Shown: positions 6,901 to 64,000 of the stretch, piece after piece | How the letters are laid out: every line of letters begins with the position of its first letter | Position numbering within the stretch: the first letter of the stretch is position 1 | Source of the DNA: a bacterium | GTDB lineage: Bacteria > UBA8248 | Direction: 5' to 3' | Assembly: GCA_965213625.1 (NCBI GenBank) | Contig: CBDBZU010000004.1 | Span: 1,664,001 to 1,728,000 of the forward strand | Length of the DNA stretch: 64,000 nt | Notes under the pieces: generated by a model | Seen by the model: the letters and a program-made list of their open reading frames with translations, nothing else | Database searches by the model: none | Told to the model about the DNA's origin: nothing | Made by a program: the position numbers and the translations under genes

Positions 6901-6925
6901 CGAATCGTCTCCCTCCGAGGGGTTT

Positions 6926-39783: not shown

Positions 39784-39790
39784 GAGCGGG

Positions 39791-40933: not shown

Positions 40934-40970
40934 AAAAAACCCCGCCCGGGTATGGGCCCAGGCGGGGTTT
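40934..40970 (-). terminator. Rho-independent terminator after thiC
   Basis: AAACCCCGCC.GGG...CCC.GGCGGGGTTT with a T-run on the minus strand. Confidence 0.7.
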
Positions 40971-40997
40971 GGTGTGATGTGGTCGTTAGAGTTCGGC

Positions 40998-42791
<1,794 letters not shown>

Positions 42792-42900
42792 TCAGATTGG
42801 AATTCACCGGCTTCATACAGGAGAAGGATGAAGCTTTCCCCGCGCGATGAATTCTCTTTATTCACATGTGGCGAAGGGAAAACAGAGGATGTGGAAGACC

Positions 42901-42980
42901 TGTCGCTTCCCTACGCCGGCGCTAACCGGTTCAGGTTCGAAGGGTTTGTTCTCAGCCTGCAAGGCACCCCCAGCGAACTT
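42901..42980 (-). promoter_or_regulatory. TPP riboswitch
   Basis: Minus strand GGGGTGCC..GGCTGAGA..ACCC..GAACCTGA.CCGG..A..CCGGCGTAGGGAAG upstream of thiC. Confidence 0.93.
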
Positions 42981-43240
42981 TCAATCTCGAAGATTAGCAG
43001 TCGTTACGCCGCGAGTCAAAAGGAAAACCATATGAGAAGGACGATTTTATCGACGTTTCCGGTGGCGGGGCGGAAATTTTGTTGTCATGATGGCGGCATG
43101 ATGATTCGGATGTTTATGAAATTACCTGGGCCAGGCCGCAACACCGGGAGCCTTTTCATACGATTACCGTTCTATTCCGGGCGGTTGTCCACGCCTTGGC
43201 GGTAGGCCCGATAGTTCAGGCAACGGATGAGAGAGGACGA

Positions 43241-45136: not shown

Positions 45137-45357
45137 GGCAGAACACGACTTGCACTTGGACGGAGTGGTATTCCGTGATGGGCGGAAGAAACTTGCTTTC
45201 TGTTACTTACGCGGTATATTTGTTGGTGGTTGGGGCTTTCTGACATCGATATCATATAACGGTTGATTAATTTTTCCGGAACCATGCTCCGTTACGGAGC
45301 GGTGTCGGCGTAGCCGACGTTTCTACCTTAAGTATGCTGCCTATGTGAGGTTTTTTC

Positions 45358-47277: not shown

Positions 47278-47548
47278 GTCTTTTCCTTCAATAGCATGAA
47301 GCTTTGCCCGATTTTCTGAGGTGCAGGGCGCATTTGCGGGGCCATGATAACCTGCAAATGAAAATTTTTTTCTTGAATTGAGAGGACCCGGGTGGAGAAA
47401 AGAAAATTCCCTTCGTTTTTCTCTGGAACTGAATATCTGGTAAAAGATTGATTTTGCAATTGCTAAACATTTTTTTCCGGCGCGAGGACCGATGCAGGGT
47501 ACGAATCATGTGGGGACGAATTTTTTGGATATCCACTTGGAATGTTTG

Positions 47549-47580
47549 TTGACAAAGACCATCATCTTCTCTATTCTTTT
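47549..47580 (+). promoter_or_regulatory. Sigma70 promoter P1 overlapping a candidate attL core
   Basis: TTGACA-N17-TATTCT. Core TCTATTCTTTT at 47570-47580. No convincing gene directly downstream. Confidence 0.7.
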
Positions 47581-48604
47581 ATCGAACAGACCGTATCTAA
47601 CATTTCCCGGTAAACCAAATATCCCTGCAATACACTGATTTTATATTATATACGGCGAATTATCGTCCTGTTTCAGCGTTTCTGGTTCTTCTCCCTTGAA
47701 ATGAGTAATCAAACCGCAAGCGGGTTCATTACAACCCCTGCGCGTCCCGGCGAGCGCGTGTCGGGGGAAGTGTCCGGCGGCGGGGTGACGGCGTTCGTTG
47801 CAGCGCTCTGGGAATTGCTTCCGGTTAGTCCGGAGCAACCGCTGCCGGACATCCATTGGGGTTTGCCGCATCGTCCGCGTCCCGGGGTGTTCCGGATGCC
47901 TGGAAACCCGGCGTCTTCCAGGCCGGCGCTTCGGCCCGCTCCCCCCGTGCCAAGGTCCCGCTCCCGCAGGAGGGCTCCCGAGCGGAAACGCGCCGACACC
48001 CGCCGGAAATACCCCTGAGAGAGTGTCCCCGCCGGCGCGAAGCAGCGCGTCCACAGCGCTTCGCCCCCCGGCCTTTGGCAGGGACACCCTCCGTGCGGCA
48101 TGGGCCGATATGCCGGTGTTCCGCATCTCTTTTTCATTCCCCGATGAAAGCGCCTGGACCAGAGCGCCGCCCCTCCCGGCAAGCGTGAAATGCCCCATTG
48201 GTCTTTCACGACATTCCCACGAGGAGTCGCCGGGAGGGACGACTTGCCGCTTGAACCCAGGCGGCACAGCACAAGGAGGAAATGCGCGCCTGAAGCGGCT
48301 GGTTCGCGTTTTTCGCGGTACGGTGTTTTCCCTGAATCTGTAGGGGTATCGCGGCAAATATACACCGCCGCCGGGTCTTGCTCAACGGCTCCTGCTCGCG
48401 CAAGGCCCCCTCGTCGTCCACGTCCCTCATCCATCCGCCGATTGACAGGAACCCTCGAGACGGCAGGTCGTGGTGGTCGACGTCATACCGCCGCCCGCCG
48501 GCGAAAGGTGGAGGCAGTGGAGAGTCGCCTGGGACTGAGGGTGCGGGGTGGAGAGAGGCCGCCGCGCCCATCCGCCATCGACCCACGACCCGGGAGGATT
48601 TTCC

Positions 48605-48952
48605 ATGACAAACCGAAAACCATCCGCTGCGGCGCACTTGATCGTTCTCGCTGGCCCCGCTCTCGCGCTGCTCTACACCCTTATCGCCATAAGCGGCGGG
48701 AGGGGCGTCCGCTTCATCTCCGCGGCCTGGCTCCTCGCCGCGCTCTGGACCATCGTCACCGCGCTCTCGGGCGCCCTGTGGCGGGCGTACCGCAGCGACT
48801 GGTCCGCCTTCACCTCCTACACCCTTCCCGAGAGGAACGAAGAACAATTCGACTGGGAGACCCGGACGGGGCGTTACTCCTGGCGGCGTGATTACGAGGA
48901 AGGCGAGATGTACGATGATGATTATCCCTACGGTCACGGCCCCATCGCCTGA
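48605..48952 (+). CDS. Small membrane protein, hypothetical
   Basis: GGGAGG RBS, two TM helices, acidic tail. Confidence 0.65.
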   Translation: MTNRKPSAAAHLIVLAGPALALLYTLIAISGGRGVRFISAAWLLAALWTIVTALSGALWRAYRSDWSAFTSYTLPERNEEQFDWETRTGRYSWRRDYEEGEMYDDDYPYGHGPIA

Positions 48953-49341
48953 GCGTCCGGAGGTTTCACTCTCTGCCGCGTAAGCGGCGGCACGCGCCCC
49001 GTACCCCGGCATACCCCCCTGCTTGTTCGCCGCGGCGTCCGGTCCTCTTCACGGACGCCCATATTATCCGAAATCAATCCGCCCGGAAGGGATTTCGATA
49101 GTGGATTTCCTGCACCTTGCCGCCGTATGCGCTCACGTCCACCACCCCCCGCGCCGGGACTTGATAAAAAAATACGCTAAGACAGGCGGCATCCCTCTTT
49201 TCCTCCACAGGCGCGCCCCGCCCCGCCGAGAGACAGAGCCGGGCCGGGAGGGGGCGGCGGAAGGGGTCCGGGAGGGAGCCTCTCCCTCTCCGGTCAATAC
49301 CGGTCGCCGCCATCATCCACCCATTCCAAGGAGGCCGCGCG

Positions 49342-49644
49342 ATGCGAAAACCAAAACCTGAAGCCGACACCTTCCTCACCCATCTCCTGGGCCCTGGCCT
49401 GGCCGATGAGCGATACGAGGTCAGGCGATACAAATCCGATGCCCGGGGCAGCATCAGGCCCGCGCCCTCTCCTGAGAGCGGTAAGCGCAAAAGAAAACGC
49501 GTGACGGCCTCGCGCCGTGTTGTCAGGGAGATGCGTCCCGCCCGGGACGAGCTCATCATTTGTACGGGGATCAAAATCCCCGGGAGCGGCCTGCAGCTGT
49601 GGGGCGAACACCTCGTGTGGGGGCGGATGATGAGCCGGGGATGA
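49342..49644 (+). CDS. Hypothetical protein (doubtful or degraded)
   Basis: AAGGAGG RBS; no recognised domain. Confidence 0.35.
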   Translation: MRKPKPEADTFLTHLLGPGLADERYEVRRYKSDARGSIRPAPSPESGKRKRKRVTASRRVVREMRPARDELIICTGIKIPGSGLQLWGEHLVWGRMMSRG

Positions 49645-49710
49645 ACCCGCAAGACGTCTGGCCGCCCCACTGCCGTCTACACGACTTCACCGACACATGA
49701 GGAAAATCCT

Positions 49711-50523
49711 GTGCCACACAAGAATCCGAAAATTCGACGCGAGAGAGAACGCGAACGCCACAGGCGGAGGACCGAATCGCGTAGAGCGCGGAGAGCTTGC
49801 CCGAAGTGCGGCGAATACCCTCCTGCACCCGGGCGAACTCTCTGCGAATCCTGCCTCGGTAAATCCCTGACCGCCGAACGCGCCCGATACGCCAAAGCCC
49901 GGGAAGAGGGGTTCCCATATGGCGGGAGAGACCCCGAAAGCCGCCGCCGCATGGCGCGCGAGAGGGCGAGAAAACGCAGGCGCGAGCGTCTCGAGGCCGG
50001 GCTCTGCACGGCTTGCGGCGAACGGGAACCCGCCGGGGGCGCAGCCGTCTGCGAAATCTGCCGGGAAGCGAGACGCGCGGCGGAAAAGAAGCTTTATGAA
50101 AAAAGGAGATCCTCCGGGCGATGCGGTCGTTGCGGAGGCGCCGTTATCGGCAAGGCTTCGACGTGCGCTTCGTGCGCCGAAAGGGAGGTGAAGCGCCGCC
50201 CAAAGAAGAACGCCGCGAGCAGGAAACGCTATCGCGACAGACGCGCCCTCGGGATCTGCGTGGACTGCCAATCATCCGAAACCAACGGAGCATCAAGGTG
50301 CGCTTCCTGCGCCTTGCGCTCCTGGCACTCCTCGGGCGAGCACAGGGGGATGCCGGTCTTTCCGCCGCGCTACACCGTGGTGGAACTCGAAACGGGCGCA
50401 GAACACGGCCCCCTCGACTCCTGGGAGGAGGTAGCCATGTGCCTCGCCTTCAAGAGGCTCTCCCGCGATGAAATCGAGGTGGTCGAGGACGCGCCCTTGA
50501 TTTCCGGGCTCGCCGGGTGGTGA
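49711..50523 (+). CDS. Basic protein with four tandem CxxC-x11-CxxC zinc-finger-like repeats
   Basis: CPKC..CESC, CTAC..CEIC, CGRC..CASC and CVDC..CASC separated by Arg-rich helices. Confidence 0.8.
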   Translation: MPHKNPKIRRERERERHRRRTESRRARRACPKCGEYPPAPGRTLCESCLGKSLTAERARYAKAREEGFPYGGRDPESRRRMARERARKRRRERLEAGLCTACGEREPAGGAAVCEICREARRAAEKKLYEKRRSSGRCGRCGGAVIGKASTCASCAEREVKRRPKKNAASRKRYRDRRALGICVDCQSSETNGASRCASCALRSWHSSGEHRGMPVFPPRYTVVELETGAEHGPLDSWEEVAMCLAFKRLSRDEIEVVEDAPLISGLAGW

Positions 50524-50674
50524 GCGTCGCCTGAGCCGGCACGGCGGGGGTACGTACCGCCGGCGGGCCGACGACCGAGGGGGAGGGTTCGCCGCCTCCC
50601 TGCTCCGCAGCCGTCCCGTCGACCTCAGGGCGTCTGCCGGAAGCGGCCTCGCCGGGGGGGAGTCTCCGGTCCGC

Positions 50675-51049
50675 TCAACGCCCGCGCCATTCCCGAGGCA
50701 AAGCGAGTCCCGGGCGGCGGGGCCTTCGCTCGACCCGCCAGGCCGCCACCCATGCCGGGAGAGAGAGCAGGAGCGACTGATCGCCTGTGGGCAGCGTACC
50801 TGAGAAGCCCGCGACTGCGGCGCCGCCGAGCGCGGCCCACGCCACTAGGGCGGGACCCGGATAGCCCGAGCGGGCGAGACGCTTACAGGCGAGCGCCAGC
50901 GGCATGCCGCACGGAGCAACCGCCACCAACTCCACGAGAGAGGCGGGCGCCATCATTCCGGACACGGACCCCACGCGCAGAACCTCTTCCGCCATAATTC
51001 CTCCCGGCAGCCACGACAGCGCCGGAATCCAGAATTTGAGACTGGCCAT
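50675..51049 (-). CDS. Small membrane protein, hypothetical
   Basis: GAAGGAGGAGG RBS; hydrophobic segments. Confidence 0.55.
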   Translation of the reverse strand: MASLKFWIPALSWLPGGIMAEEVLRVGSVSGMMAPASLVELVAVAPCGMPLALACKRLARSGYPGPALVAWAALGGAAVAGFSGTLPTGDQSLLLSLPAWVAAWRVERRPRRPGLALPREWRGR

Positions 51050-51243
51050 GCCTCCTCCTTCCTCATGTCCGCGCGCCTTCTGACACGAATCCGCGGCAAA
51101 GGCAAGCGCCCTCCGCGAGCGCTCCCCGCCGGGTGAGAACCTCCCCGGGAGAGGTGAAGAGAAGCGGGGAGCCGGGCAAATGCCCGGTAGGGAGAGGGAG
51201 ACGGTCTCCAGTTCCCGCCGCCGGCGACAACCCGAGAGGAGGC

Positions 51244-51384
51244 ATGGCCATGTAGGAGAACGACTACGACGTCGACGTTCCCACCGCGGATGAGTTGCTC
51301 GCAGAACTCGGACTCGACGCGTACACGATCCGCAAGCTGCGCGACGAAGCGCAAGGCGAGGCGGAGGAGTTTTGCAGCGTCTAG
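51244..51384 (+). pseudogene. Small acidic ORF with in-frame TAG at codon 4
   Basis: GAGAGGAGG RBS; MAM*ENDYDVDVPTADELLAELGLDAYTIRKLRDEAQGEAEEFCSV. Confidence 0.5.
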
Positions 51385-51462
51385 GACGAACCGGGGGGGC
51401 GGGTGAGAGGATTCCCGGCTCCTCGACTTTATCATCCACACCACACTTCAAGGAGTATCAAA

Positions 51463-51903
51463 ATGGCATTCGGACTGAACCGTGCGGAACTGATCGGGCG
51501 TCTCGGCGCCGACGTTACCATCAACCATCTCGCGAGCGGGGGACGCGTCGCGAATCTATCCATAGCGACCGATGAGGGCTACGTGGACAGGCAGTCCGGC
51601 GATCGGGTGGAGAAAACAGAGTGGCATAGGATCGTGACATTCCAGCCGGGCCTGGTGGACATGCTCGAGAGGCACGCGAAGAAGGGTCGCCTGGTATATG
51701 TCGCGGGCAAGCTCCAGACCCGCCGCTGGAAGAAGGATGAGGAAGACTCGGATCGGTTCTCGACCGAGATCCTCATCGCGCCCGGCGGGGTCGTCCAATT
51801 CTTGGAAAAAATGAACGGGAACAACAACGGCAACGGCGCGCACCCCGAGACGGCCGACGTGGCGCCCACCGCGGGCGTAGTCGGGCAGGAGATTCCATTC
51901 TGA
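51463..51903 (+). CDS. ssb: Single-stranded DNA-binding protein (mobile-element type)
   Basis: LN...LIGRLG.D, TEWHR, KG..VYV.GKLQTR.W, C-terminal EIPF. Confidence 0.92.
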   Translation: MAFGLNRAELIGRLGADVTINHLASGGRVANLSIATDEGYVDRQSGDRVEKTEWHRIVTFQPGLVDMLERHAKKGRLVYVAGKLQTRRWKKDEEDSDRFSTEILIAPGGVVQFLEKMNGNNNGNGAHPETADVAPTAGVVGQEIPF

Positions 51904-52276
51904 TCACCCCGGGGGGTCGGCGCCACGCGCCGGCTCCCCTTCTTTTTTGCTCCGGATCCCGAGGAGGCCCGGTATGCCCCGAACACCCTCTCCCGCGTCT
52001 TTCCCTCCCTGCCGGCTTCTCTCGTCTACCGGGAACACCCCATAAATCTCCGGTTCCGTGAACGGTAAACCATGTTCCCGGAAGATCGGCTTGCACCTGC
52101 AAGCACTCCATGCTCAAGGCAGTGGCTCAGTCTACCCCCCGCTGCGGAAATTTCGGGCCGAATAACGGCCCGAAATGACCCTTTCCGCAGCATGAGAGAT
52201 TGTTTCCCGATGAGCTTCGCCTTCATCGTGAAACACCAAAAACTCTTGTGTCCCGGTGGCGGTACTAGTGTCTCTC

Positions 52277-52506
52277 TCTTAGCGCCCTCATTTTAGCACG
52301 AACGCCGGGCGAATAAAGGGTGGCCGCAAGCGGCCATCATTTACCGGTGCCCCCCAAAAACGTCGAGCGGCAAAAAACAGGAGCGCCGCTCTATGAACCG
52401 TGTTTTTCGGGAACCCCCCGGAAAATGACAAGCCCTTGATTCGCCCGCCTACGGGCATCGGCAACACCGCCCGATGCCCTTACGTGTTGAAAATGAGGCG
52501 CTAAGA
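52277..52506 (+). promoter_or_regulatory. Long fold-back structure, Frpo/ssi-like single-stranded promoter candidate
   Basis: Nested stems 52277-52300/52483-52506, 52306-52320/52433-52447 and 52337-52347/52418-52428, with side hairpins. Confidence 0.6.
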
Positions 52507-52541
52507 AGCGCATCCGTTAACTCTCTGGAAAGGAGAAAGGC

Positions 52542-52919
52542 ATGGAAACCACCGTGGTGAACCTGAACACATATGTCGATGAACCCGGCAGCGGCCTGCT
52601 GGTGAGGATCGACCGCATGACGAAGTGGGGAAACCCCTTCCGGCTCGGCGCCGACGGCGACAGCGACGCCGTCATCGAGAAATACCGGCGATGGCTGTGG
52701 GAAAAAATCCAGCGCGAGGAGCTCGACCTATACGAACTCGCCGACCTGCAGGGCTGCGAACTCGGCTGCCACTGCCACTGCCATCCCCTCCCGTGCCACG
52801 GCGATGTCCTCGCACGCGCCGCCGAGTGCGCAGCCAGGTATCTCGACGAGATGCCCAAAGAAGTAGGGCGCAACGAGCGTGGCTACGCTCTTCCCGAATT
52901 CAACCATCCCCTCGCTTGA
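52542..52919 (+). CDS. DUF4326 domain protein
   Basis: IDR.TKWGNPF, I.KYR.WL, L.G..LGC.C..P.PCHGDVL. Confidence 0.85.
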   Translation: METTVVNLNTYVDEPGSGLLVRIDRMTKWGNPFRLGADGDSDAVIEKYRRWLWEKIQREELDLYELADLQGCELGCHCHCHPLPCHGDVLARAAECAARYLDEMPKEVGRNERGYALPEFNHPLA

Positions 52920-53008
52920 GGACAACCGAACCACCGGCTGAAAAACCCAATCACTGAAAGGAGTGAATGATGACTGCCTCCGCGACTCACGACCGCAAGG
53001 AGAGCACC

Positions 53009-53929
53009 ATGTACGAGAACGATCACAACGATGCCCAGCATGAATCTTTCACCGCCATGGTCTGCGAGCAGGCCGCACTATTCGGCGCGACACCGGGGCC
53101 GGACGAGTTCGACAACCGCCCCGTGTGGGACGAGGGCGAGGCAACCGCCGCCGTCATCAAGGCCTTCGGCGCACTCGCGGAAGCTGCGCCCGACGGCACG
53201 CAACTCGCGGATGAGCGAAGAAACCTCCTGTGGGGGTTCGTCAACACCCTCGACGCGCAGACACAACGCCTCGAGCGCGCCGCCGACAAACTCATCCCCG
53301 GCATCCGCGAACTGCAGCGCGAGCAGGACGGCTCCGAGATCAGGTCGCGCGAACTCGAACTCATGACCGACCGCGCCCAGAACCTGAACGACAGGCGCGA
53401 TGCGTTCGAGGGGCTCAGGGACACGGCCGCAGAGGCCTACCGCATCGAGACCGGCGAGGTATGGCGGCCGAGGCGAGGATCACACGTCTCACAGACCGGC
53501 AAACTGACCTCCGCCGTGATCGAGGCGCGCGACTTCCAGCGCGCCAGAAAGGACCGCGAGAACACCGCACACTTGCCGCAGGGAACTCTCGTCGCCGTCG
53601 CGGGAGGCAAGGAGGCGAGCGATGCGGGTAAAATCATCGCACACCTCGACCGCCTTAAGGCCAAGTACGCCGATGTCGTCCTCGTCCACGGCGGCGGCCC
53701 CGGTGCGGAGAAGATAGCGGCGGGATGGGCCGAGCGGAACGGCGTCAACCAGGTCGTGTGTAAACCGGATTGGGATGCCCACGGACGGGCCGCTCCCTTC
53801 CGCAGGAACGACGAACTCCTGGCACTCCTGCCCAAGGGCGTGATCGCGTTCCCCGGCAGCGGCATCACCGACAACCTCGTCGACAAGGCAAAAACCCTCG
53901 GCATCCCCGTCCAGAAAATCGTCGCCTGA
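53009..53929 (+). CDS. DUF2493 (YspA/SLOG-like) domain protein of conjugative elements
   Basis: LWGFVN, EQDGSE, W.PR.GS, LVHGG..GAE.IA..WA, AAPFRRND, FPGSGIT.NL. Confidence 0.85.
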   Translation: MYENDHNDAQHESFTAMVCEQAALFGATPGPDEFDNRPVWDEGEATAAVIKAFGALAEAAPDGTQLADERRNLLWGFVNTLDAQTQRLERAADKLIPGIRELQREQDGSEIRSRELELMTDRAQNLNDRRDAFEGLRDTAAEAYRIETGEVWRPRRGSHVSQTGKLTSAVIEARDFQRARKDRENTAHLPQGTLVAVAGGKEASDAGKIIAHLDRLKAKYADVVLVHGGGPGAEKIAAGWAERNGVNQVVCKPDWDAHGRAAPFRRNDELLALLPKGVIAFPGSGITDNLVDKAKTLGIPVQKIVA

Positions 53930-54598
53930 TGCGGGAGCTCAACGGGTCGCGTCGCCCGGCGGCGCGGCCCGTTCTTCTCCTCCTTCATTTGCCGCTGTAC
54001 TTGCCTCCCCGTATTACTCTCCTCCTCTCCTCTCGCTCAGTCGCCGCGGCGGCTCCCGTTCGCCATCTTCTCCGGCGTCGATTCCCCTGTCGCTTGTCCC
54101 ACGGATTCGACCATCTGACGCCCTTCGGCGCTTCGGGTTACACACCGGAACGCAGCAGGCTGCGAAGTTCCGGCATACGACGACCGGGCTACTCTCCCGT
54201 CTCATGTCGGCGACACAGGGCGCCAGGCGCATTGCGGATCGAGCGTATGCTCAGAGCATACACAATCTTTCTCATCCCTGACGGCGCATGGCTGCGCAAG
54301 TCGCGCATGGATACCGGATCCGTCGCAATCGGTGGCGTTCCGTAATACAATGTGTTACGGCCCGCATTACGTTAGTATGCTTCCGATTCTGGCCGTTTCG
54401 CGGTGCGCCGGGGCCGCCACCTGTGCGGAGCGCTCTCTCGCAGATGGCCGCAAGCCCCTGAATACGGGACGTTGAATCGAGCGTAGACGGTCCCGGATAC
54501 GCCCTGATTTTCGCCCCGAACCAAGCCGTCGGAACCCGGAAAGGGCGAGCGATGCGGTCCGTATCGCCACCCGATCTTGTCCTGAGGAAGAGAAAAAG

Positions 54599-54985
54599 AT
54601 GACGCGAAACGACCCGAATCAGCCCGAAAAGAGCAAAAAATCAGCGGAAAAACCGGGCGAACCGAGAGCGCCGCACTCGGTTCGCTTCACCGGTTCGGAA
54701 TGGAAATTGATTAAACGAGCCGCCGAACTGCACGGTATTGCGGCCGGTGAACTCGTCCGCAACGGCGCGATGGCCGCTGTCGAGGAGCTGCTCGACGAGC
54801 CTCCAGAGGCCACCCTGTCGCATGGTCATGCCGCCCTCATCGAGTCCGTCTACCGCATGGTCTACGTGATGGCGACCCTGGATCGGGGACGATTGATCGA
54901 CGCCGGGCGCGGGAAAGAGCTCGAGGACCTCATCGCCGCGGCGCACAGAACGATGGCCGAGACCATGGACGAAGGCACAGGGTGA
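54599..54985 (+). CDS. Hypothetical ribbon-helix-helix-like DNA-binding protein
   Basis: HSVRFT..EW..I..AA..HG....ELVR pattern. Confidence 0.6.
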   Translation: MTRNDPNQPEKSKKSAEKPGEPRAPHSVRFTGSEWKLIKRAAELHGIAAGELVRNGAMAAVEELLDEPPEATLSHGHAALIESVYRMVYVMATLDRGRLIDAGRGKELEDLIAAAHRTMAETMDEGTG

Positions 54986-55330
54986 ATGCAGAGGGCGGCG
55001 CGATGCGTGCGTAAGCCGGTTTATCGGTTGCAAATTTGTTGCAAGAACCCGCGAATCGGGCCCGGTCGGACCGCGTTCAGAGCCCCAGGTCCATCTCGAT
55101 CCGCTTCCCGGGGCCGGGTTCGGGTGTCTTCGCGTGCGGCGTTTCCCGTCCGTTTTTCATGCCCGGGGAAGAGGAATCGGAGAGTCCATTCGGGTAAAGT
55201 CCAGATTGCACGGCAACCTTTCGGCCAAAGACACTTGAACACGGAACATTCCGAAGCCCGCTTCAAGAATGTCTCCAACTTGTGTTGCCGGCTTCTGTGT
55301 ATTATATTTATATATAACTTGGAGGATTTC

Positions 55331-55588
55331 ATGCACACGACAAATCTGCGCAAAGTCGGTGGTTCCATCATGCTAGCCGTTCCACCTGCCCTTCTTGACC
55401 TCCTGAAACTCGGGGTCGGCGCGAAGGTGGAAATAGACGTGGAGGACGGTCGCCTGATCGTCGAGCCCAAAGCACGTCCCGTCTATTCACTCGATGAGCT
55501 TCTCGCGCAATGCGTAGAGACCTCTACGCAGCCCGCCGAGGACCGCGCCTGGATTGAGGCCAGACCAGTTGGCAAAGAGTTGTTGTAG
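55331..55588 (+). CDS. pemI: AbrB/MazE-family antitoxin (PemI-like)
   Basis: MHTTNLRKVGGSIMLAVPP...YSLDELLAQC...W.....GKELL. AT-rich palindromic operator upstream. Confidence 0.85.
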   Translation: MHTTNLRKVGGSIMLAVPPALLDLLKLGVGAKVEIDVEDGRLIVEPKARPVYSLDELLAQCVETSTQPAEDRAWIEARPVGKELL

Positions 55589-55920
55589 TGAAGCGGGGTG
55601 AAATCTGGCTCGTCAGCCTCGACCCCACCGCAGGCCATGAACAACAGGGTACCCGTCCGGTACTGATCGTATCCCCAGACCCGTTCAATAGACTCACCGG
55701 GACGCCCGTGGTCTTGCCGATCACATCGGGCGGCGACTTTGCGCGCAGGGCAGGTTTCGCAGTTTCTCTCTCGGGCGCGGGTACCCGAACAACCGGTGTC
55801 GTCCGTTGCGACCAGCCGAGGTCCCTTGATCTCGCTGCCCGCAACTGGGCGCGTCTCGAAACCGTTCCTGAACTTATTATGGACGAAGTGCTTGCCCGAA
55901 TCGCCACCATCCTCGAATAA
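55588..55920 (+). CDS. pemK: PemK/MazF-family endoribonuclease toxin
   Basis: RGEIWLVSLDPTAGHEQQGTRPVLIVS...FN, PIT, DQ.R.LD. Confidence 0.9.
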   Translation: MKRGEIWLVSLDPTAGHEQQGTRPVLIVSPDPFNRLTGTPVVLPITSGGDFARRAGFAVSLSGAGTRTTGVVRCDQPRSLDLAARNWARLETVPELIMDEVLARIATILE

Positions 55921-56231
55921 AAAGTGATTGTTCGTCTTCAAGGCCGGACGGCACTTATCAGTGATTTCCCGTTTCGGGTCCCAGTTCTTGCGAATAACGC
56001 TAATTTGCCAATGCAATAGAGGGAGCGGCACCGATTGGCTTAATCGGTCCTGGTTCAGGGAGAGGTGAGGAGCGAAATTTCGTGCCTTGGAGCGTCAGGT
56101 GGGAAGATCGGTAAACGTAATGAATGTGATCGTACGTCAGCTTCATTTTTTTCTCCTGTTGGGTATGGATGAAAAAATTGGGGAATTGTAACCCAAAGTT
56201 GACAAGATTTTTAGGATAAATATCTACCCCG

Positions 56232-56729
56232 CTATTGGACTATTTCTACAGAGCGCCTGGCCTTTTTGTACTCGACATTCAAACGATGTACCGTCTTAAT
56301 CAACTCGGAAGACTTGCCGAAAACTACGAACATCAACTTATTTTTCCAATGGATTGCAGTTGAAAAACTTCCATGAGGAAGCCTTTTTTGATCCGTTCGA
56401 TGCACCACCATGATAAGAGCTTCAAATTCTTCGGCGGGTAGATTCTGGATTTCATCAATCAAGATGATGATCGAAGATTTGCGCGCCTTCGCTGCCTCGC
56501 CCGCGGCGACAAACACCTCGGCAAAATCACGGGCTAGCGTGCCGCTGTCGGCAACTCCTGGTTCACCATCTATGTCTAAGAAAAATTCAATATCCTCAAC
56601 CTTGATCTTGACCGCACCAACAAAACTCTTTAGAACGCGCAAACTCCTTTTTACATGTTCACTAACCCCCTTGATTCGATCAAGCTTCAGCAAGATCGAG
56701 CGCAAAGTGGCAATAATCGTTTTCGACAA
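56232..56729 (-). pseudogene. Fragment of an AAA-type ATP-binding protein
   Basis: Walker B-like IILIDEIQ and G.ADSG.L, but no Walker A and truncated ends. Low GC. Confidence 0.6.
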
Positions 56730-57218
56730 AATTCGTTCGTGCTGATTTCGATAAAGTCTGTGAGTGCGTATTCTTTAGATTTTGTTTGGAGGTGTAGCTA
56801 TTGAACTCAAGAGGAATTGAGAAGGGCTATAAGTCTTAGTGAATCAGAATCAATGCCTACTTGGTTGCCGGTTTCAGATACAGCATAACGTGCTCACCGC
56901 TCAATACAAGATATTGATTTCACTTCGTCATGTGTATAATCACGGATAAAATCGCGGAGTCTACTGGTGATGGGGTTCAATACGAGCGTCGGCGCCTTCG
57001 TATACTTGATCGAATACCATCACCTGAAAGCCGGAGTTTCTATTGATTTATTGGTCAGGCTCGGAAGTGAAGCGGTGAAATTGAAGTTCCTGGTGCACAC
57101 AGCTATCGATGCTCGAGGACGTTAAATGTATGACCCGAGTCGTCCAATACGGCGTGTTAATTCGCAAGTCGTCTGGTGGTACTAGAGAAACACGAGCAAC
57201 TGACGAGGAGGTGACTTC

Positions 57219-57518
57219 ATGAACCCCAAAATAACCATACCGAAACCCGCGCTTTCCGCCTTCTGTCGGGAGAACGGTATCCGCCGGCTTTCCGTCTTCG
57301 GCTCGGCCTTGGGTGAGGATTTTGGACCCGGGAGCGATATAGACCTTCTCGTCGAATTCGAGCCGGAAGCTAGAATCGGCTTCATGAAACTGGCCAGGAT
57401 GCAAAGGGAGTTGGCGGCCATCATTCACCGCAAGGTGGATCTGGTTCCCCAAGATGGATTGAAGCCGAAAATACGAACGGAGGCGCTTTCGGGCGCGGAA
57501 GTGATCTATGCGGCGTGA
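57219..57518 (+). CDS. MNT-family nucleotidyltransferase antitoxin
   Basis: LSVFGS......SDIDLLVEF, KVDLV. Confidence 0.9.
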   Translation: MNPKITIPKPALSAFCRENGIRRLSVFGSALGEDFGPGSDIDLLVEFEPEARIGFMKLARMQRELAAIIHRKVDLVPQDGLKPKIRTEALSGAEVIYAA

Positions 57519-57864
57519 GGAACTCTACCTCGCCGACATGCTGGAGGCTGCGGACGCCATCGGCCGATTCCTTCTGGAAACCGAGCAACATTCGTTCATC
57601 GCGGACGACCTGCTGCGTAGCGCCGTCCTGCATAAATTGGCGGTCATCGGCGAAGGAGCAACCCGGTTGTCCGATGCGTTTCAGGCGCGCCATCCCCAAA
57701 TCGAATGGGGAGACATCGTGGCGTTTCGCAACATCATCGTTCACGCCTACTTTTCTGTGGATTGGCCTATCGTCTGGGTGACGGCGACACAGGACGTTCC
57801 GGAACTTCGGCGCGGAATCGCCCGGATACTTGCGGAAGAATACCCCGACTGGGAAGCACGGTAA
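57508..57864 (+). CDS. HEPN (DUF86) toxin
   Basis: IGE, I.W.....RN...HAY..VD...VW with the Rx4H motif RNIIVH. Confidence 0.9.
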   Translation: MRREELYLADMLEAADAIGRFLLETEQHSFIADDLLRSAVLHKLAVIGEGATRLSDAFQARHPQIEWGDIVAFRNIIVHAYFSVDWPIVWVTATQDVPELRRGIARILAEEYPDWEAR

Positions 57865-58196
57865 CCTTCCTCGAGCCGCGCAGAAACAATAAACGGCATG
57901 GAACCAGATGGGCGCGAAGGGGAGAACAATCTAGTCAGGCGGATATGTCGTCCCGCCCCTGAACTCTCAAACGCCCTTGTCCGCAGGTGTGGTGACTCCG
58001 ATTTCTCCGCGCAGGAGGCGCCTGAAGGTGGCCCGTCGCCACCCGTTCCTGCACCGGGCGATCCTGCGTCCGACGCGGTTCCGCCTGCCGGCGGGCATCG
58101 AAGCCGAGCGCCCGTCGATCCAAGAGGTATATTCCGCTTGGCGCTGCTCGATGAGCGAAACCCGGCCGTCCCGTTGATGCGGCGTTTCGAGGAGAA

Positions 58197-59010
58197 TTGA
58201 CACGCGAACAGCGCGCTGCCACAGATTCCCTGTTCGCGCACGAGACCGGCGTAAGTGCCGCCGCGTCCGGGTTCGGCAAGACGGTCGTCGCAGCATTGAT
58301 GATAGCTGAGCGCGGCGTGAAGACGCTCATCCTCGTTCATCGCCGCCAGCTGATGATGCAGTGGATTGCGCGGCTTGGTGTTTTTCTCGATCTTACTACT
58401 TCCGCCATCGGACGGGCCGGGGGCAGGAAACGCAAGCTTAGCGGGGTCATAGACGTCGCCACGCTCCAGAGTCTGGAGCGCAAAAACGTGGTGGACGACC
58501 TCGTCGCCGACTACAGGCACCTCGTGGTCGACGAGTGCCACCACTTATCTGCGGTGAGCTTCGAGGTGGTGGCGCGCCGCGCCAGGGCGAGGTACGTGCT
58601 CGGGTTGTCTGCGACCATCATGCGCAAGGAGCACGCCGGGGAACTCGCCGGGAAGATCGGGCGCTTCGCGCGAAACGTCCTGCTCTTCAGAGGCGGCATG
58701 GAAGAGAGAGCGCCGCGAGATCATGCAGCGCCTGGAAGACATACCCGACGGCGAGGAGCGGGTACTGGTCGTGACCGGCCGCTATATCGGAGAGAGATTC
58801 GACGATGTCCGCCTCGACATGCTGTTCCTCGCGATGCCCGTGTCGTGGCGGGGAACGCTGGCCCAGCACTTCGGCCGCCTGCACCGGCTCCATTCAAAAA
58901 AACGCGAAGGTGCTAGTCTACGAATATATCGACGACGCGGTGCCGGCGCTCAGGCGTTATGGGCGGCAGTCGCGTCAAGGGCTACGAGAGCCTCGGCTAC
59001 ACAGTCGAGT
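58197..59010 (+). pseudogene. Degraded DEAD/DEAH-box (SF2, restriction-type) helicase
   Basis: SGFGKT, VDECHH and GLSAT, then an internal deletion and frameshifts. Helicase C motifs (GRYIGE.FD, GRLHR) lie in another frame. Confidence 0.75.
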
Positions 59011-59449
59011 GGCCCGGCGTCCCAAGCGGAACGTGAACTTACAGGCCCGGGCGAGTATGGCGCTGACGTTATTACGGTCGCGTGATCCGGACAAGGTGAA
59101 GATATAGGCCTGCCTGACGGCGGCAGGCGATCTCAAACGGTTCAGTGCCGCTCATTTTTCTAGGTTATGTACCCCTTGGAGGGCTCTTGCATCAACTGGA
59201 ATCGCCGTACGAATATCCATGAAGCTTACAAACCCCACGGTCTCGATCTACCTGAACCCAAGTAATACAAACCGTTCCGAACCCAATTCCTCACCTTATT
59301 TCATAAAGCAGGTGGTTTATGTACGTGGGGCAGTCCTTGGGAGGAGCTGCCACCTGCGAATCAATCATTCTCTTTGGGCCTACTCCCCCACCCCTGCATA
59401 AATATATCCTTGTCCTGAGGCGAGGAATGCTTCAAAGAACTCCACACAC

Positions 59450-59478
59450 AAAAAACCGGGGGGCCGAAGCCCCCCGGT
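59450..59478 (-). terminator. Rho-independent terminator of the porin gene
   Basis: Minus strand ACCGGGGGGC-TTCG-GCCCCCCGGT followed by a T-run. Confidence 0.85.
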
Positions 59479-59519
59479 CGTCATCGCGTCAGGTAAGGAC
59501 TCGAGCGTCCTTCATGCTG

Positions 59520-60746
59520 CTAGAATGAATGCCTCAACCGCCAGCTGACCACCCACCCGTCATCGGGCTCAGTCGCGTTGGCCGCTCTGCCGTAGTCGCC
59601 GCGCAGGATGACGGCGCCAACAGCGCGAAGCTCGGTACGCGGATGTATTTTCCACTTGAAGCCGGCGTTGAGCTCGGTGCCGAATTCCTTGGAAGTATCC
59701 ATATTATCTCCGGGATGACTTTCTGCGGAGTTGTAAACGGATACGCCACCACCCAGCGAAAATGTTTTGCTGATCTTGTACTCGCCTATTCCCTCGAGCA
59801 CAACCGCGCCGTTCAAATTTTTCAAAGTAACGTCTTTCAGATCGTTATTGATACTATCCCAGCGGCGCGAACTCATGATGTGAGAACCGTGGAGCCAACC
59901 GGAACCATTGTTTTGAGGGAAATGGAATTTACCCGTTTCGCCGTCTTTGCCTTCGTCATCGCCGGAGAGCATCGTGAGGTTGCCCTCGAGTTTCAGCTTG
60001 CCCAGGCTTGCGGAAGTCCTCACCAAGACGGCCCATCCCGAAAGATCCGTCCCTCCATCGAGCTCACCATCCTGGCCGACGACCGAGGCGTTCAAGTTGA
60101 AGATGCCTACCTTGCCCTTGGCGTGGAGACCGAAGAAGCTGTAGTCATAACCGTTATTCGCTCCGTTTCTGGAATTGGCCAGCCAAGGAGAGAGCGTGAG
60201 AGTGGGCGACACTTTGACGCCCACGCTGGCATAGTAATCCTCTTTATCGGCGTTGGCTTCGCTCTTGTCTTCACTAGCCTTGACATAAAACATGCTGAGC
60301 GACATGTTCTTGCTGAGCTTGCCATAGACCCCGACGCCCGGCTCGCGAGTCCGTCCGCCGCTGTCGTAGATTTCCTTATCTGGCGAGAAGCGATCCCAAC
60401 GGCCCCAACGCATGCGGAGCGTGCTGCCCGGGATCGCGAAGTCGATCGCCCAGCGGTTCACACCTAGGGTCTGACGACTGGCATTGGTGAAACCGCCGTG
60501 CGGGCTTTGAAATTCGGGCTCCCACACGGTTGTGACTGCGCCGCTCTTCACCGTGAATCGCGGGCGGATGAGCGCTTCGAGGTAATTATCCTTGTCGTCT
60601 GCGTCATCGTCCCCGTCTTTGTTGGCGTTATTGCTGGTGCCGCGCACCTGATAGAGACCGGTCATCTTGAAGTCGGCCGCATACGAGGGCAAGGTGAATG
60701 ACAAGACGAGCGCCATCGCAAATAGAGCTAACAGAATTTTCCTCAT
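59520..60746 (-). CDS. Outer-membrane beta-barrel porin-like protein
   Basis: Signal peptide MRKILL...SYA|ADF, amphipathic beta-strands, C-terminal WRLRHSF, GAGGAG RBS. Confidence 0.8.
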   Translation of the reverse strand: MRKILLALFAMALVLSFTLPSYAADFKMTGLYQVRGTSNNANKDGDDDADDKDNYLEALIRPRFTVKSGAVTTVWEPEFQSPHGGFTNASRQTLGVNRWAIDFAIPGSTLRMRWGRWDRFSPDKEIYDSGGRTREPGVGVYGKLSKNMSLSMFYVKASEDKSEANADKEDYYASVGVKVSPTLTLSPWLANSRNGANNGYDYSFFGLHAKGKVGIFNLNASVVGQDGELDGGTDLSGWAVLVRTSASLGKLKLEGNLTMLSGDDEGKDGETGKFHFPQNNGSGWLHGSHIMSSRRWDSINNDLKDVTLKNLNGAVVLEGIGEYKISKTFSLGGGVSVYNSAESHPGDNMDTSKEFGTELNAGFKWKIHPRTELRAVGAVILRGDYGRAANATEPDDGWVVSWRLRHSF

Positions 60747-60829
60747 GTGTATTTCTCCTCATCGAGGTTTCAAAAAAATGTTGCCGCCTTCCTTCGTTTT
60801 AATGTCCTGATTGTTCGATGCTTCTGAAT

Positions 60830-61001
60830 CTGTGCTTCGTCGCCTGAAACAGGGCTTCCCGCTCTCACATCACCCCCTCTCTTCAATACTGCCCCGTACG
60901 TCGACAAGGTTCTATCGAGCGATCTGATAATTGCCGCTTATGTAGACACTATCCCATTAGTAAAAATAGTCATTCCATTCTTCATTTCTCAAAAGAATAG
61001 A
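60830..61001 (-). repeat. Inverted repeat left arm (porin 5' leader plus -10 core)
   Basis: Exact reverse complement of 63829-64000 (172/172). Confidence 0.95.
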
Positions 61002-61278
61002 AAAGATATGATTTAAAAGCTAAAACGCCGACAATCATGCGCATGGATGCGCTCATGCATGATAAATACATGTTTTTAATTTATTTATAATTACACTTTC
61101 TTCCGCGTTGCCTCTTGCGCCATCGCCAGATTTGTGCTGGAATGCGCTCTCAGTTGATGCGGGACGTATGCGTTATGATGACGTATTTTGACGGGAGCGC
61201 CGCACCGGAGCATGCGGATGGGCGTTCCCGCAGACCGCCGCAGGCATGCGGTTTGATGACACACCGGAGGGAGGAACC

Positions 61279-62463
61279 ATGCCGAGGAGAAGCGAATTCA
61301 GGCTCACCAAGCGCGCCGTCGACGCGCTCGAAACCGAACGCCGCGACGCCCTGTTCTGGGACCGGGATCTGGCCGGATTCGGGGTGCGCGTCCACGCCAC
61401 GGGACGGAAGGTTTTTGTCGCGCAATCGAGAGGCCCCAGGGGGATAAAACGCGTGACCCTGGGCCGTGACGGGGAGATGTCGTGCGAGGAGGCGAGGAGG
61501 CAGGCCGCCATCGTCATCGACCGCATTAAAAGCGGCGAGGACCCCGTCCCGAAGCCGCCTGAGGCGGAACCCACCCTGGGGGAGATCGCCGAACGCTTCA
61601 TGAGCACATACGTGGAGAGGCGCCTCAAGCCGGGCAGCGTCGTGGAGTACCGCACCATGCTGGACAAATACATCCTGCCAGCCCTGGGCGGGATGGCGCT
61701 GTCCGAGGTCAGGCGGGCGCAAATCTCCGCGTTTCATCACGGCATGCGCGGCATGCCGAGCCGGGCGAACACGTCGCTCCACGTCCTCTCCCGGATGCTC
61801 AGCCTGGCCGAGGCGTGGGACCTCATCCCGCCCGGACGGAACCCGTGCAGGGGAGTGCCGCTCTACAAGACGCGCTCGCGCGAGCGGTTCCTGACGACGG
61901 AGGAATACCGCCGCCTGGGCCGGACGTTAAAAGAAGCCGAGGCGGACGGCTCGATCTGGTCGCCCGCGATCAAGGCGATCCGGCTGCTCATGCTGACCGG
62001 ATGCCGGAGGAACGAGATACTGAACCTTAAGTGGGACGATGTGGACCGCACGGCGGGCGTTCTGAGGCTCAGGGACGCCAAGGCGGGCCCCCGCATGGTT
62101 CCCCTGACGAATCCCGTGCTGAGGGTTCTCGAGACGCTCCCCCGGAAGCGGGGCGAGCCATGGGTGATCCCCGGGCAGAACCCGGGCCAGAACCTGCGGA
62201 GCCTTCACTACTACTGGCGGCGCATACGGGAGCGGGCGGGTCTCTCCGACGTGCGGATCCATGACCTGCGCCATTCGTTCGCTTCGCGTGCGCTTGCGCT
62301 GGGCGAGAGCCTCTACACGATCGGCAAGCTTCTGGGACACGCGACGGTGCCGACGACGGCGCGCTACACGCACCTGATGCTCCGGGCCGAGAAGGATGCG
62401 GCCTCCCGTGTGGGGGGAAGCATCGGCGTTCACCTGACGAACGAGAAGGAGGAACTTGAATGA
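61279..62463 (+). CDS. Tyrosine recombinase/integrase 1 (arm-binding domain)
   Basis: WD..L.GFG.RV arm domain; TGCR..E, DAKAG, HDLRH.FAS, LLGH, TARY all intact. Confidence 0.93.
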   Translation: MPRRSEFRLTKRAVDALETERRDALFWDRDLAGFGVRVHATGRKVFVAQSRGPRGIKRVTLGRDGEMSCEEARRQAAIVIDRIKSGEDPVPKPPEAEPTLGEIAERFMSTYVERRLKPGSVVEYRTMLDKYILPALGGMALSEVRRAQISAFHHGMRGMPSRANTSLHVLSRMLSLAEAWDLIPPGRNPCRGVPLYKTRSRERFLTTEEYRRLGRTLKEAEADGSIWSPAIKAIRLLMLTGCRRNEILNLKWDDVDRTAGVLRLRDAKAGPRMVPLTNPVLRVLETLPRKRGEPWVIPGQNPGQNLRSLHYYWRRIRERAGLSDVRIHDLRHSFASRALALGESLYTIGKLLGHATVPTTARYTHLMLRAEKDAASRVGGSIGVHLTNEKEELE

Positions 62464-63629
62464 AGAAGCCGGGCACGATGGTGCTGTCGAGCCGGATGGT
62501 GGAGAAGTTTGCCGTGGAAAAAGACACGGTGTACTGGGATAGTTACGTCACCGGCTTCGGCGTCAGGGTGTATCCGAGCGGGAGCAAGGTCTACATCGCC
62601 CAGGCGCGGGGGCCCGGGGGGCCGAAGCGCGTGACGATAGGCCGCCACGGGGTGATCAACGCGGATGAGGCGAGAAGGCGCGCGGCGCTCGTCATCAATC
62701 GCATCAAGTCGGGCGAGGAGGGGGTTCCAAAACAGACGAAGCCCGTGCCCGGTCCCACGGTGGCCGAAGCCGCCGCGCGGTATCTCGCCGAATACGTGGA
62801 GGTGCGCTGTAAGCCGCACACCGCCGCCATGACCCGGTCGCTACTCGGAAGACGCATCTTGCCCGCCCTGGGCGGGACGCCGCTCGCGGTGGTGGAGCGC
62901 GCGCAGGTGGCGGAACTGCACCAGAGCATGCACGAGACGCCCCCGACGGCGAACAGGACAGTCGGCATCCTCTCCGCGCTATACCGGTATGCCGAGAGGT
63001 GGGGCCTCATTCCCGAGGGAGCGCCGAACCCCTGCCGCGCCGTCGTCAAATTCCCCAAGCGACAGGGGGAGCGTTTTTTGACGGATGAAGAGTTCATCCG
63101 CCTGGGACGCACACTCGATGAGGTGGAGAAAAGCAAGCCGAAGTACGCGAACGCGGTGGCGGCGATCAGACTTCTGGCCCTGACGGGGTGCCGGAAGTCG
63201 GAAATCCTCACCCTGCGCTGGGAGAACGTGGCGCTGGAAGAGGGGGAATTGAGACTGCCCGATTCCAAGACGGGCGCCCGCGTGATATCGCTCCCGCCGC
63301 AGGCGGTCGCTCTCCTGGCCGCCCTGCCCCGGGAGGAAGGGAATCCCTGGGTGATTCGCGGCAGGAAGCCGGGCGTTCGCCTGATGAATATCTATGGCGT
63401 TTGGCACTACGTCCGAGCGCGGGCGGGTCTCGATGACGTGCGCCTCCACGACCTCCGCCACTCGTTCGCGTCCAGAGCGCTCGCGCTGGGCGAGAGCCTT
63501 CCGATGATCGGCAGGCTCCTGGGGCACAGCCGCATTGAGACCACGGCGCGCTACGCGCACCTAGCGCGCGATACCGCGTACGAAGCGGCCGAGCGGGTTG
63601 CGGCGAGCATCGAGAAAGACATACTATGA
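62460..63629 (+). CDS. Tyrosine recombinase/integrase 2 (paralog of 1)
   Basis: WD....GFG.RV; TGCRKSE, DSKTG, HDLRH.FAS, LLGH, TARY. ATGA-coupled to recombinase 1. Confidence 0.93.
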   Translation: MKKPGTMVLSSRMVEKFAVEKDTVYWDSYVTGFGVRVYPSGSKVYIAQARGPGGPKRVTIGRHGVINADEARRRAALVINRIKSGEEGVPKQTKPVPGPTVAEAAARYLAEYVEVRCKPHTAAMTRSLLGRRILPALGGTPLAVVERAQVAELHQSMHETPPTANRTVGILSALYRYAERWGLIPEGAPNPCRAVVKFPKRQGERFLTDEEFIRLGRTLDEVEKSKPKYANAVAAIRLLALTGCRKSEILTLRWENVALEEGELRLPDSKTGARVISLPPQAVALLAALPREEGNPWVIRGRKPGVRLMNIYGVWHYVRARAGLDDVRLHDLRHSFASRALALGESLPMIGRLLGHSRIETTARYAHLARDTAYEAAERVAASIEKDIL

Positions 63630-63806
63630 GAGGCAATCGACGGGGTGGACGAAAAGAACCGGACTGGCCGGGTTCGTGTGCTCGTTTTTTTGAAATTTTC
63701 AGATTCGGGGTTTGACGAATCAGTCTATCTTCGCTAATACTATGTCTATGTGGAATAGGGTGACTGATTCCGAAAGATTTCTTTTCGGATTCAGGTGGGA
63801 AGTTTG

Positions 63807-63839
63807 TTGACAAAATATAAATTTTCGATCTATTCTTTT
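63807..63839 (+). promoter_or_regulatory. Sigma70 promoter P2 overlapping a candidate attR core
   Basis: TTGACA-N18-TATTCT. Upstream GGAA.GTTTGTTGACAAA is shared with P1. Confidence 0.7.
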
Positions 63840-64000
63840 GAGAAATGAAGAATGGAATGACTATTTTTACTAATGGGATAGTGTCTACATAAGCGGCAAT
63901 TATCAGATCGCTCGATAGAACCTTGTCGACGTACGGGGCAGTATTGAAGAGAGGGGGTGATGTGAGAGCGGGAAGCCCTGTTTCAGGCGACGAAGCACAG
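63829..64000 (+). repeat. Inverted repeat right arm (second copy of the porin leader; runs off the window)
   Basis: Exact reverse complement of 60830-61001. Confidence 0.95.

Follow-up and report, generated by a model that had tools for sequence, protein, structure and literature searches.

At the right end of a 64,000-nucleotide stretch of a bacterial chromosome (the window; G000:C4:1664001-1728000, where G000 is the genome under study and positions are window coordinates unless stated otherwise) we found two tyrosine recombinase genes, int1 and int2, that are enclosed by a perfect inverted repeat and flanked by two divergent genes encoding porin-like proteins. Considering how a putative promoter is divided between the enclosed segment and the repeat, and how the locus varies between related genomes, we read it as a recombinase-borne invertible promoter that would toggle the two porins by site-specific inversion. 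On the basis of these sequence comparisons we assign a probability of roughly 0.7 to this reading.

The arms of the repeat within the window (60830-61001 and 63829-64000) comprise 172 nt, are 100% complementary and lie 2,827 nt apart, as a preliminary description of this DNA had stated, and in the genome sequence the exact repeat extends beyond the window edge to a full 282 bp (60720-61001 / 63829-64110). Continuing the alignment past 64000, a check that was suggested in the same description, places the end of exact identity at 64110, and the first mismatch (60719/64111) falls in codon 10 of both flanking genes. The exact repeat therefore holds a 255-nt leader and the first 27 nt (nine codons) of coding sequence, which is the content of the left arm (60720-61001); the right arm (forward strand, 63829-64000 in the window and to 64110 outside) represents the leader of the porin gene that is proximal to agt. 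Outward of the exact repeat the identity drops gradually (91% over 517 nt, ~80% over 1,581 nt), because the flanking genes as a whole, including their terminators, are inverted paralogs. The exact repeat makes up the innermost part of a ~1.57-kb inverted duplication that consists of these two genes, whose similarity ends just beyond their nearly identical terminators. The inner boundary, on the other side, is sharp, with six mismatches among the first nine inward positions.

It is at this inner boundary that the putative promoter is split. The -35 box TTGACA (63807-63812) lies in the segment, at its right, int2-distal end, and the -10 box TATTCT (63831-63836) in the first bases of the right arm, with a spacer of 18 nt; both placements had been proposed before and are borne out. 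The combination TTGACA-18-TATTCT is the best sigma-70-like match (10/12) across 6.5 kb of sequence (L001 1200-7700). The -10 box is part of a 10-nt core, TCTATTCTTT, with which the right arm starts on the forward strand (63829-63838) and which is found on the reverse strand at the inner end of the left arm (60992-61001). At this left junction TATTCT is -10-like and lacks a -35: it is preceded by unrelated A+T-rich sequence, in which neither a -35 box nor a promoter-like match was found. The sequence inward of the right core, the P region (63630-63828, forward strand), contains two terminator-like hairpins after int2 (63669-63684 and 63702-63721), followed by TTGACA. The sequence inward of the left core, the N region (61002-61278, forward strand), is an A+T-rich unique flank upstream of int1 that could be aligned in seven genomes, and it contains two conserved 15-nt direct repeats (61168-61182 and 61246-61260) at 167 and 245 nt from the core. 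The 15-nt motif has two matches in 16 kb, with one mismatch each, where 0.32 are expected. Integrases of the lambda type use arm sites at a distance from the core, and the 15-nt repeats are candidates for such arm-type sites, or for an operator. A 9-8-9 dyad arrangement at the core of G000 (7/9 matching) was dropped, as it is not kept in other genomes.

We then compared the 23 genomes of the genus in our collection, of which G009 and G021 lie outside the detailed locus comparison, and aligned the 14 arms of the genomes that possess the switch. The order porin(-), int1 int2, porin(+) beside agt-serA-hisZ-purA is present in 7/23 genomes (G000, G011, G012, G013, G014, G016 and G020), and a 3-kb contig of G005 has int2 adjoining the promoter-side porin. 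The core begins the repeat in 14/14 arms. Inward of it there are always two unrelated classes of sequence, P beyond int2 and N upstream of int1, and TTGACA occurs 17-18 nt before TATTCT solely at the int2-distal end, in 7/7 genomes. The same promoter is found unsplit (TTGACA-17/18-TATTCT) in six genomes with a single porin gene (G002, G004, G006, G008, G017 and G018), which have no recombinase within 8-10 kb upstream; this suggests that the -35 and the -10 are the parts of one ancestral promoter that was divided by the switch. G003 has the promoter as well, on a contig that ends 0.6 kb further on, and in G022, G007, G001, G015, G019 and G010 no exact copy of the 9-nt motif was seen next to the porin. 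Altogether the 10/12 consensus match is kept in all seven switch genomes and in eight further genomes of the genus; TTGACA-TATTCT would be the working promoter. Inverted repeats that bracket a segment with recombinase genes inside are a trait that the locus has in common with invertons, and the outward-facing -35 half inside the segment would be another.

The orientation of the segment differs between genomes. With the agt flank as reference, the recombinase operon runs towards agt in six of the seven genomes and away from it in G020, where the segment is flipped relative to agt-serA-hisZ-purA and the TTGACA (P) end abuts the distal porin. The recombinases of G020 are the closest to those of G000 (Int1 and Int2 are 95-96% identical), and the two loci align in reverse over 5,163 nt. 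A misjoin is unlikely, because the G020 locus lies on a single 4.48-Mb contig and its arms are only 82% alike. Both orientations thus occur among the genomes, and these data fit the earlier proposal that inverting the segment moves the -35 box from one leader copy to the other.

The comparison also narrows down where the crossover would occur. The exact run from the inner boundary measures 281 nt after the first T in G000 and 73 nt in G014, but only 9-11 nt in G011, G012, G013, G016 and G020; likewise, the arm identity over leader and gene start is 92.5% in G000, 95% (~400 nt) in G014 and 80-86% in the other five. The sole boundary element that all arms have in common is the 10-nt core, and judged from these alignments the function of the switch does not reside in the long perfect repeat. 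Since the arms in 5/7 genomes share only 9-11 nt exactly, the 100% identity in G000 reflects a recent, lineage-specific homogenisation, by gene conversion or by replacement of the distal leader. It had been ascribed to recent duplication or to ongoing recombination or gene conversion; gene conversion is one of these options, and the identity proved specific to G000. Directly after the core, most genomes carry side-specific signatures. The first 60 nt of the arm that is joined to N in G020 show an identity of 0.80-0.87 to eight agt-side arms (G016, G013, G002, G000, G018, G017, G005 and G003), of only 0.72-0.77 to the agt-side arms of G008, G011, G012 and G006, and of 0.68-0.73 to the N-linked, distal-type arms of G011, G012, G016 and L044 (a metagenome locus, see below). 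The arm is thus of the agt-side type straight after the core, which implies that only the inner flank changed partner and fits a crossover in the core or no more than about 10 nt away from it. As the arms of G020 are 82% alike and differ by a ~30-nt internal deletion, they would be a poor substrate for homologous recombination, and the pattern fits a site-specific reaction; we infer a crossover at or next to the core for the switch in general.

The 2,827-bp inner segment contains the two overlapping, intact recombinase open reading frames (ORFs) and no further ORF with a family match, in agreement with the earlier statement that it carries only these genes. The first, int1 (61279-62463, forward strand), encodes 394 amino acids (PF00589, 7.6e-24; PF13356, 2e-11; PF14659); its ORF can also be read from 61246, but homologues begin at the second Met, i.e. 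at 61279. The second, int2 (62460-63629, forward strand), encodes 389 amino acids (PF00589, 4.1e-21; PF13356, 1.4e-7); the stop of int1 and the start of int2 have 4 nt in common. The two proteins share 50% identity and both have an Arm DNA-binding, a SAM-like and a catalytic domain. The active-site residues of Int1 (Arg, Lys, His-x-x-Arg, His, Tyr) align with those of XerD (1a0p) and are the same in Int2; their roles, which we adopted from the XerD literature, are presumably the same. By catalytic domain and active-site residues Int1 and Int2 belong to the PF00589 tyrosine recombinases, and with PF13356 in both and the two conserved 15-nt direct repeats as candidate arm sites they appear to be of the Arm type. 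A Hin/Gin-type invertase was rejected, since only tyrosine recombinase domains and no serine recombinase domain were found. A predicted complex of Int1 with Int2 scored 0.05 (mark 0.32), a value that speaks neither way on a hetero-oligomer. In the seven switch loci all 14 recombinase ORFs are intact, with pairwise ratios of non-synonymous to synonymous substitution rates (dN/dS) of 0.14-0.37. ARAGORN found no tRNA gene in 50000-64000, and the locus is therefore not a tRNA-targeted island.

The seven Int1 proteins of the switch form a clade (100/99) that is separate from the other copies in G000; the placement of Int2 was not resolved by the tree. These other copies comprise at least seven further int1-int2 pairs outside the window, with 61-71% amino acid identity to the switch pair (e.g. 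G000:C4:5722-8085, 190479-192842, 334500-336853, 487841-490327, 955733-957675, 1975054-1977445 and 4071913-4074271), and in three of the seven pairs one gene is split or truncated. The pair is carried within large repeats, C4:1-11070 and 184758-195821, which are 99.8% identical and are probably mobile elements. Other tandem integrase sets occur at G000:C4:15717-18407 / 4111802-4114492 and 3499170-3501336. We considered whether the other copies are further switches and discarded the idea: at none of 11 places was there a bracketing inverted repeat or a core motif near the ends. The sequences thus suggest that the switch pair stems from a mobile family and was domesticated. A metagenome scan with Int1 returned 53 loci, one of which was close (L044, 76%); it has porin(-), the N junction and int1 int2 on a contig that ends before any flank and hence gives no orientation. 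Further int1-like or N-region-like pieces lie a few kb from the switch in G016 (L025 11948-12487) and G011 (G011:C1:2561165-2561321), and mobile copies therefore tend to sit near the locus.

The flanking genes are predicted to encode porin-like outer-membrane barrels, the exact channel type of which is left unassigned by Pfam. The distal gene (59520-60746, reverse strand), the silent-side copy in this assembly, encodes 408 amino acids and has a weak OMP_b-brl match below the Pfam cut-off; the agt-proximal gene encodes 409 amino acids and lies just beyond the window on the forward strand (ATG at 64084; L001 6084-7313). They are the sole two copies in G000 and share 69% amino acid identity. Both have a signal peptide and a C-terminal Phe, and their Pfam matches are all weak and below the cut-offs. 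The AlphaFold model of the distal porin is an 18-strand barrel (mean predicted local distance difference test score 68.5, predicted template modelling (TM) score 0.69), and its best PDB matches, found with Foldseek, were AlgE, the major outer-membrane protein (MOMP) of C. jejuni and Occ channels (E ~1e-13 to 1e-9, TM 0.5-0.64). The signal peptide, the modelled barrel and the C-terminal aromatic residue are those of an 18-strand outer-membrane channel. The paralogs are 59% identical in the predicted long (outer) loops as compared to 73% in strands and turns, and in an alignment of 20 porin sequences nearly all insertions and deletions fall in the predicted outer loops. All 15 porin ORFs that we examined are open, and the silent-side porins show dN/dS values of 0.20-0.31 in close pairs. 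Purifying selection of this kind would be expected of silent-side copies with occasional expression. Among the porins, the distal one of G000 comes closest to the single porin of G008 (88% amino acid identity, dN/dS 0.20).

We propose that the switch works as follows. In this assembly the -35 box faces the agt-proximal porin, which would be ON, and the distal porin would be OFF. Int1 and/or Int2 would catalyse the inversion by recombining the two inverted cores, be it that one or both are needed, and the 2.83-kb segment would flip, taking the -35 box and the recombinase operon to the other leader. Only the leader that receives the -35 box then has a complete promoter, so that the expressed porin would swap and the two porins would be expressed in a mutually exclusive manner. 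The terminator-like hairpins after int2 would block recombinase transcription from reading into the porin gene. As the 15-nt repeats are confined to the inner side, the pair of sites would be restored at every flip, and the reaction could then run in both directions without a directionality factor. Presumably the switch operates within populations, and one could speculate that the benefit is a variation of the surface channel as it is seen by phages or the host.

Several observations have to be held against this proposal. That a sigma-70 consensus is used in this lineage is an assumption. The core is invariant in the single-porin genomes too, and its conservation could therefore stem from promoter function alone. 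Around the core no clear dyad-symmetric binding sites were seen when the alignment was inspected by eye, and N and P, the two inner flanks, do not resemble one another. The recombinase pair is or was mobile, to judge from the other copies in G000, some of them in repeats of at least 11 kb. The search for sequencing runs with this stretch gave DNA-type runs and no RNA run, and the k=31-type contigs of all four sequencing runs described below stop at the repeat and cannot give its orientation, because an inversion through identical arms makes no new words. Six of the seven assemblies share one orientation, and flipping may therefore be rare or biased. Finally, a weaker promoter-like combination (TTGAGA-18-TATTTT, 9/12) is present inside both arms of G000.

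The last two points are also what speaks for a static arrangement, in which the divergent porins are each transcribed in their own way beside an old, possibly domesticated integrase pair, and in which G020 represents one fixed rearrangement; both orientations have after all been seen solely between genomes. The locus has undergone other rearrangements as well: the arms of G014 enclose about 10 kb of chromosomal genes together with an insertion element. Yet the promoter is split exactly between the -35 and the -10 in 7/7 genomes, and the -10/core is invariant on all seven arms that lack a -35, despite the fact that the remainder of the arms has diverged by 5-20% in 6/7 genomes. Moreover, intact genes under selection are found for the silent-side porins as well as for both recombinases, and the hexamers of the inner promoter-like site are not kept in other genomes. 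We therefore consider a static arrangement unlikely.

Quite unlikely, in our view, is an inversion by homologous recombination of the RecA type, with the long inverted leaders and the 5' ends of the genes as substrate and the recombinases as mere passengers of a mobile element that had inserted between the paralogs. The repeat of 282 bp in G000 and the arms of G014 (73 nt exact, 95% over ~400 nt) would offer ample substrate, and the arm identity in both genomes shows that gene conversion takes place; the multi-copy nature of the recombinase pair and the lack of clear core-type binding sites point the same way. Against this, the pair is kept at the locus in seven genomes, intact and under purifying selection, with an Int1 clade of its own, at the same time as three of the seven other copies in G000 are broken. 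The arms of 5/7 genomes, 80-86% alike and with exact runs of 9-11 nt at the boundary, offer little for homologous exchange, and the exchange of flanks in G020 can be placed beside the core and not somewhere along the arm.

That a fold-back or a collapsed repeat made the perfect inverted repeat, a known artefact of long-read sequencing, is extremely improbable, given that the arms continue into diverged paralogs, that the same architecture is found in six other genomes and that the repeat appears as a separate unitig at increased depth in contigs of other runs. For the latter we used Logan contigs of four runs (X2-X5) from two samples, in which the repeat unitig measures 282 nt (X2 and X5) or 302 nt (X3 and X4), has ~1.6-2.2x the depth of its neighbours (X2, 131 versus 61 and 75; X5, 263 versus 162 and 174) and is entered by unique contigs from all four sides. 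A misassembly, which the preliminary description had named as a possible pitfall, is thus contradicted. The small contigs C1-C3 were checked as haplotigs in the alternative orientation and gave no match to the locus. In run X5, from the second sample, the contig that crosses the N junction has an additional C precisely where the repeat meets the N flank (61001/61002; L001 3001), which is absent from the three runs of the other sample; this represents a strain difference on the presumed recombination junction.

As to the origin of the locus, a more tentative and rather doubtful possibility is that a porin with its terminator and its leader (from the -10 onward), the N region and int1-int2 together form a portable, promoterless 'porin swap' cassette that derives from a dual-integrase mobile element. 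The core with its arm sites (attP-like) would then recombine with the -10 of the promoter of a resident porin (attB-like) and thereby capture that promoter; the one-sided arm-like repeats would stay with the inner segment, making the reaction reversible without an excisionase. There are four hints of such a cassette: i) the duplicated unit has its limits precisely at the -10 and just beyond the terminator; ii) the distance between the cassette and the resident promoter is ~10 kb greater in G014 than in the others; iii) G013 has a second copy of porin, leader and N region, without recombinases, 1.6 Mb away; and iv) G000 itself harbours mobile relatives of the recombinase pair.

We compared the proposed switch with known systems of DNA inversion. 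The fimS element of E. coli is ~0.3 kb long, has 9-bp repeats, contains the whole promoter and turns one operon ON or OFF, and the genes of its recombinases FimB and FimE, which are without an Arm DNA-binding domain, lie outside the element. As in the locus studied here, two paralogous tyrosine recombinases turn a promoter-bearing element and make a surface structure phase-variable, both in fimS with FimB/FimE and in the related ipuS with IpuA/IpuB. Published work on these switches includes PMC6083910 and PMC8777976. Here, in contrast, only the -35 box is inside the element and two genes alternate; membership of the FimB/FimE family was rejected, since Int1 and Int2 carry PF13356 and lie inside the 2,827-bp element. 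The Hin/hix system of Salmonella employs a serine recombinase and 26-bp sites, and its flagellin alternation needs a repressor. It shares with our locus that a recombinase gene and an outward promoter travel together in the invertible segment, but here there are tyrosine recombinases and a second divergent gene instead of a repressor. In the sap system of Campylobacter fetus, RecA-dependent promoter inversion, for which no dedicated recombinase is known, acts on genes for S-layer proteins. The likeness is considerable in that a single outward promoter between opposed paralogous surface genes with a conserved 5' region (sapA) selects a gene by inversion. Nevertheless, we do not count the locus among the sap-type systems: two embedded recombinases are present in 7/7 loci, and the arms, being 80-86% alike in 5/7, are in most genomes too diverged for easy homologous exchange.

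The Arm-type (lambda/P4-like) integrases have the same order of Arm, SAM-like and catalytic domains, and close paralogs of the switch pair occur in large repeated elements of its own genome. The switch pair differs from the islands of such integrases in being fixed at one chromosomal locus in seven species, with inverted instead of direct sites, and the expected product is an inversion and not an integration or excision. The Bacteroides thetaiotaomicron BT1033-52 shufflon is described, in the portion available of its report (10.1101/521070), as having the tyrosine recombinase BT1041, a 7-bp site within the 5' coding ends and three SusC-like TonB-dependent transporter partners, and a link with phage pressure is proposed there. 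By that account it is like our locus in having a recombinase gene in mid-locus and in placing alternative barrel genes under one promoter by recombination at short sites, and unlike it since here the genes are 18-strand porin-like, the partners two, the recombinases two and the site overlaps the -10. Two surface proteins of Ureaplasma (mba/UU376) alternate by inversion at specific inverted repeats, according to the part of the source at hand (PMC3047005); these are lipoprotein antigens of a wall-less relative of Gram-positive bacteria, and an embedded recombinase pair is not described in that part. The GInts are multi-integrase islands of three recombinases and a fourth gene, as summarized in the available text (PMC5385486), and a fourth gene was not seen here. 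From all these systems the locus differs by its combination of two embedded Arm-type integrases, a -35/-10 split at the recombination site and a two-porin toggle. A literature search, which was not exhaustive and left supplements outside its scope, yielded no paper that describes a switch of this type in the lineage.

Promoter inversion is a textbook route to surface variation and nearly all of its worked examples come from gut and pathogenic bacteria; the locus would extend the same logic to an uncultivated lineage, whose related proteins bear the labels of Nitrospinae/Nitrospinota metagenome-assembled genomes. Its layout is uncommon, with a -35/-10 pair that is cut by the recombination site, two Arm-type integrases inside, two complete porins to be toggled and recombinase relatives that still reside in mobile elements of the same genome. 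It may thus be a readable example of how an integrase pair of a mobile element becomes a host gene switch, in the form of a compact, self-contained two-state device, and it singles out the porin as a gene on which phages or the host probably exert pressure in this group.

The leader of the porin genes (~250 nt; 60747-60991 and 63839-64083) contains long blocks that are invariant among 16 distinct sequences of the genus, and a small hairpin could pair the Shine-Dalgarno region just 5' of the ATG. For the 16 distinct leaders RNAalifold predicted a few local helices (-25 kcal/mol; covariation was outside the analysis), and an Rfam scan of the locus gave one sub-threshold match at a terminator and none in the leader.

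Additional porin copies were encountered in two genomes. G013 has a third, promoterless porin (L030, G013:C2:1064000-1082000; 6537-7742, reverse strand) with a core at 7997, which together with its leader, core and N-type flank is 79-88% identical to the distal unit of its own switch. The similarity stops where int1 would begin and there is no recombinase within ~10 kb; this unit could represent either a silent cassette or a relic. In G019 two porin paralogs of the same orientation lie in tandem upstream of agt (L040, G019:C1:2840000-2858000; 8519-11937) and another tandem pair is present elsewhere, with no recombinase nearby, which is a different way to hold several porin genes. In G014 (L028 and L029, G014:C1:3786000-3819000) the arms of the switch are 21 kb apart: a 3.4-kb element that is 84-90% identical to two places in G000 lies in the N region, and the equivalents of window positions 37393-47277 lie between int2 and the promoter end. 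Many inverted repeats of 65-200 nt are scattered over the G014 locus.

A small share of the stretch (0.05) was present in a sponge-metagenome run, which says nothing about habitat. Some 12 kb of the window (47284-59440), located between the distal porin and the conserved left flank, are absent from this place in G008, G011 and G012. The encoded functions include a nucleotidyltransferase/HepT-like toxin-antitoxin pair (57219-57864), a SLOG-domain protein (52967-53929), a truncated ResIII/DEAD helicase fragment (58197-58916) and a MazE-like ORF, and by this gene content the region looks like a small defence/toxin-antitoxin island beside the switch.

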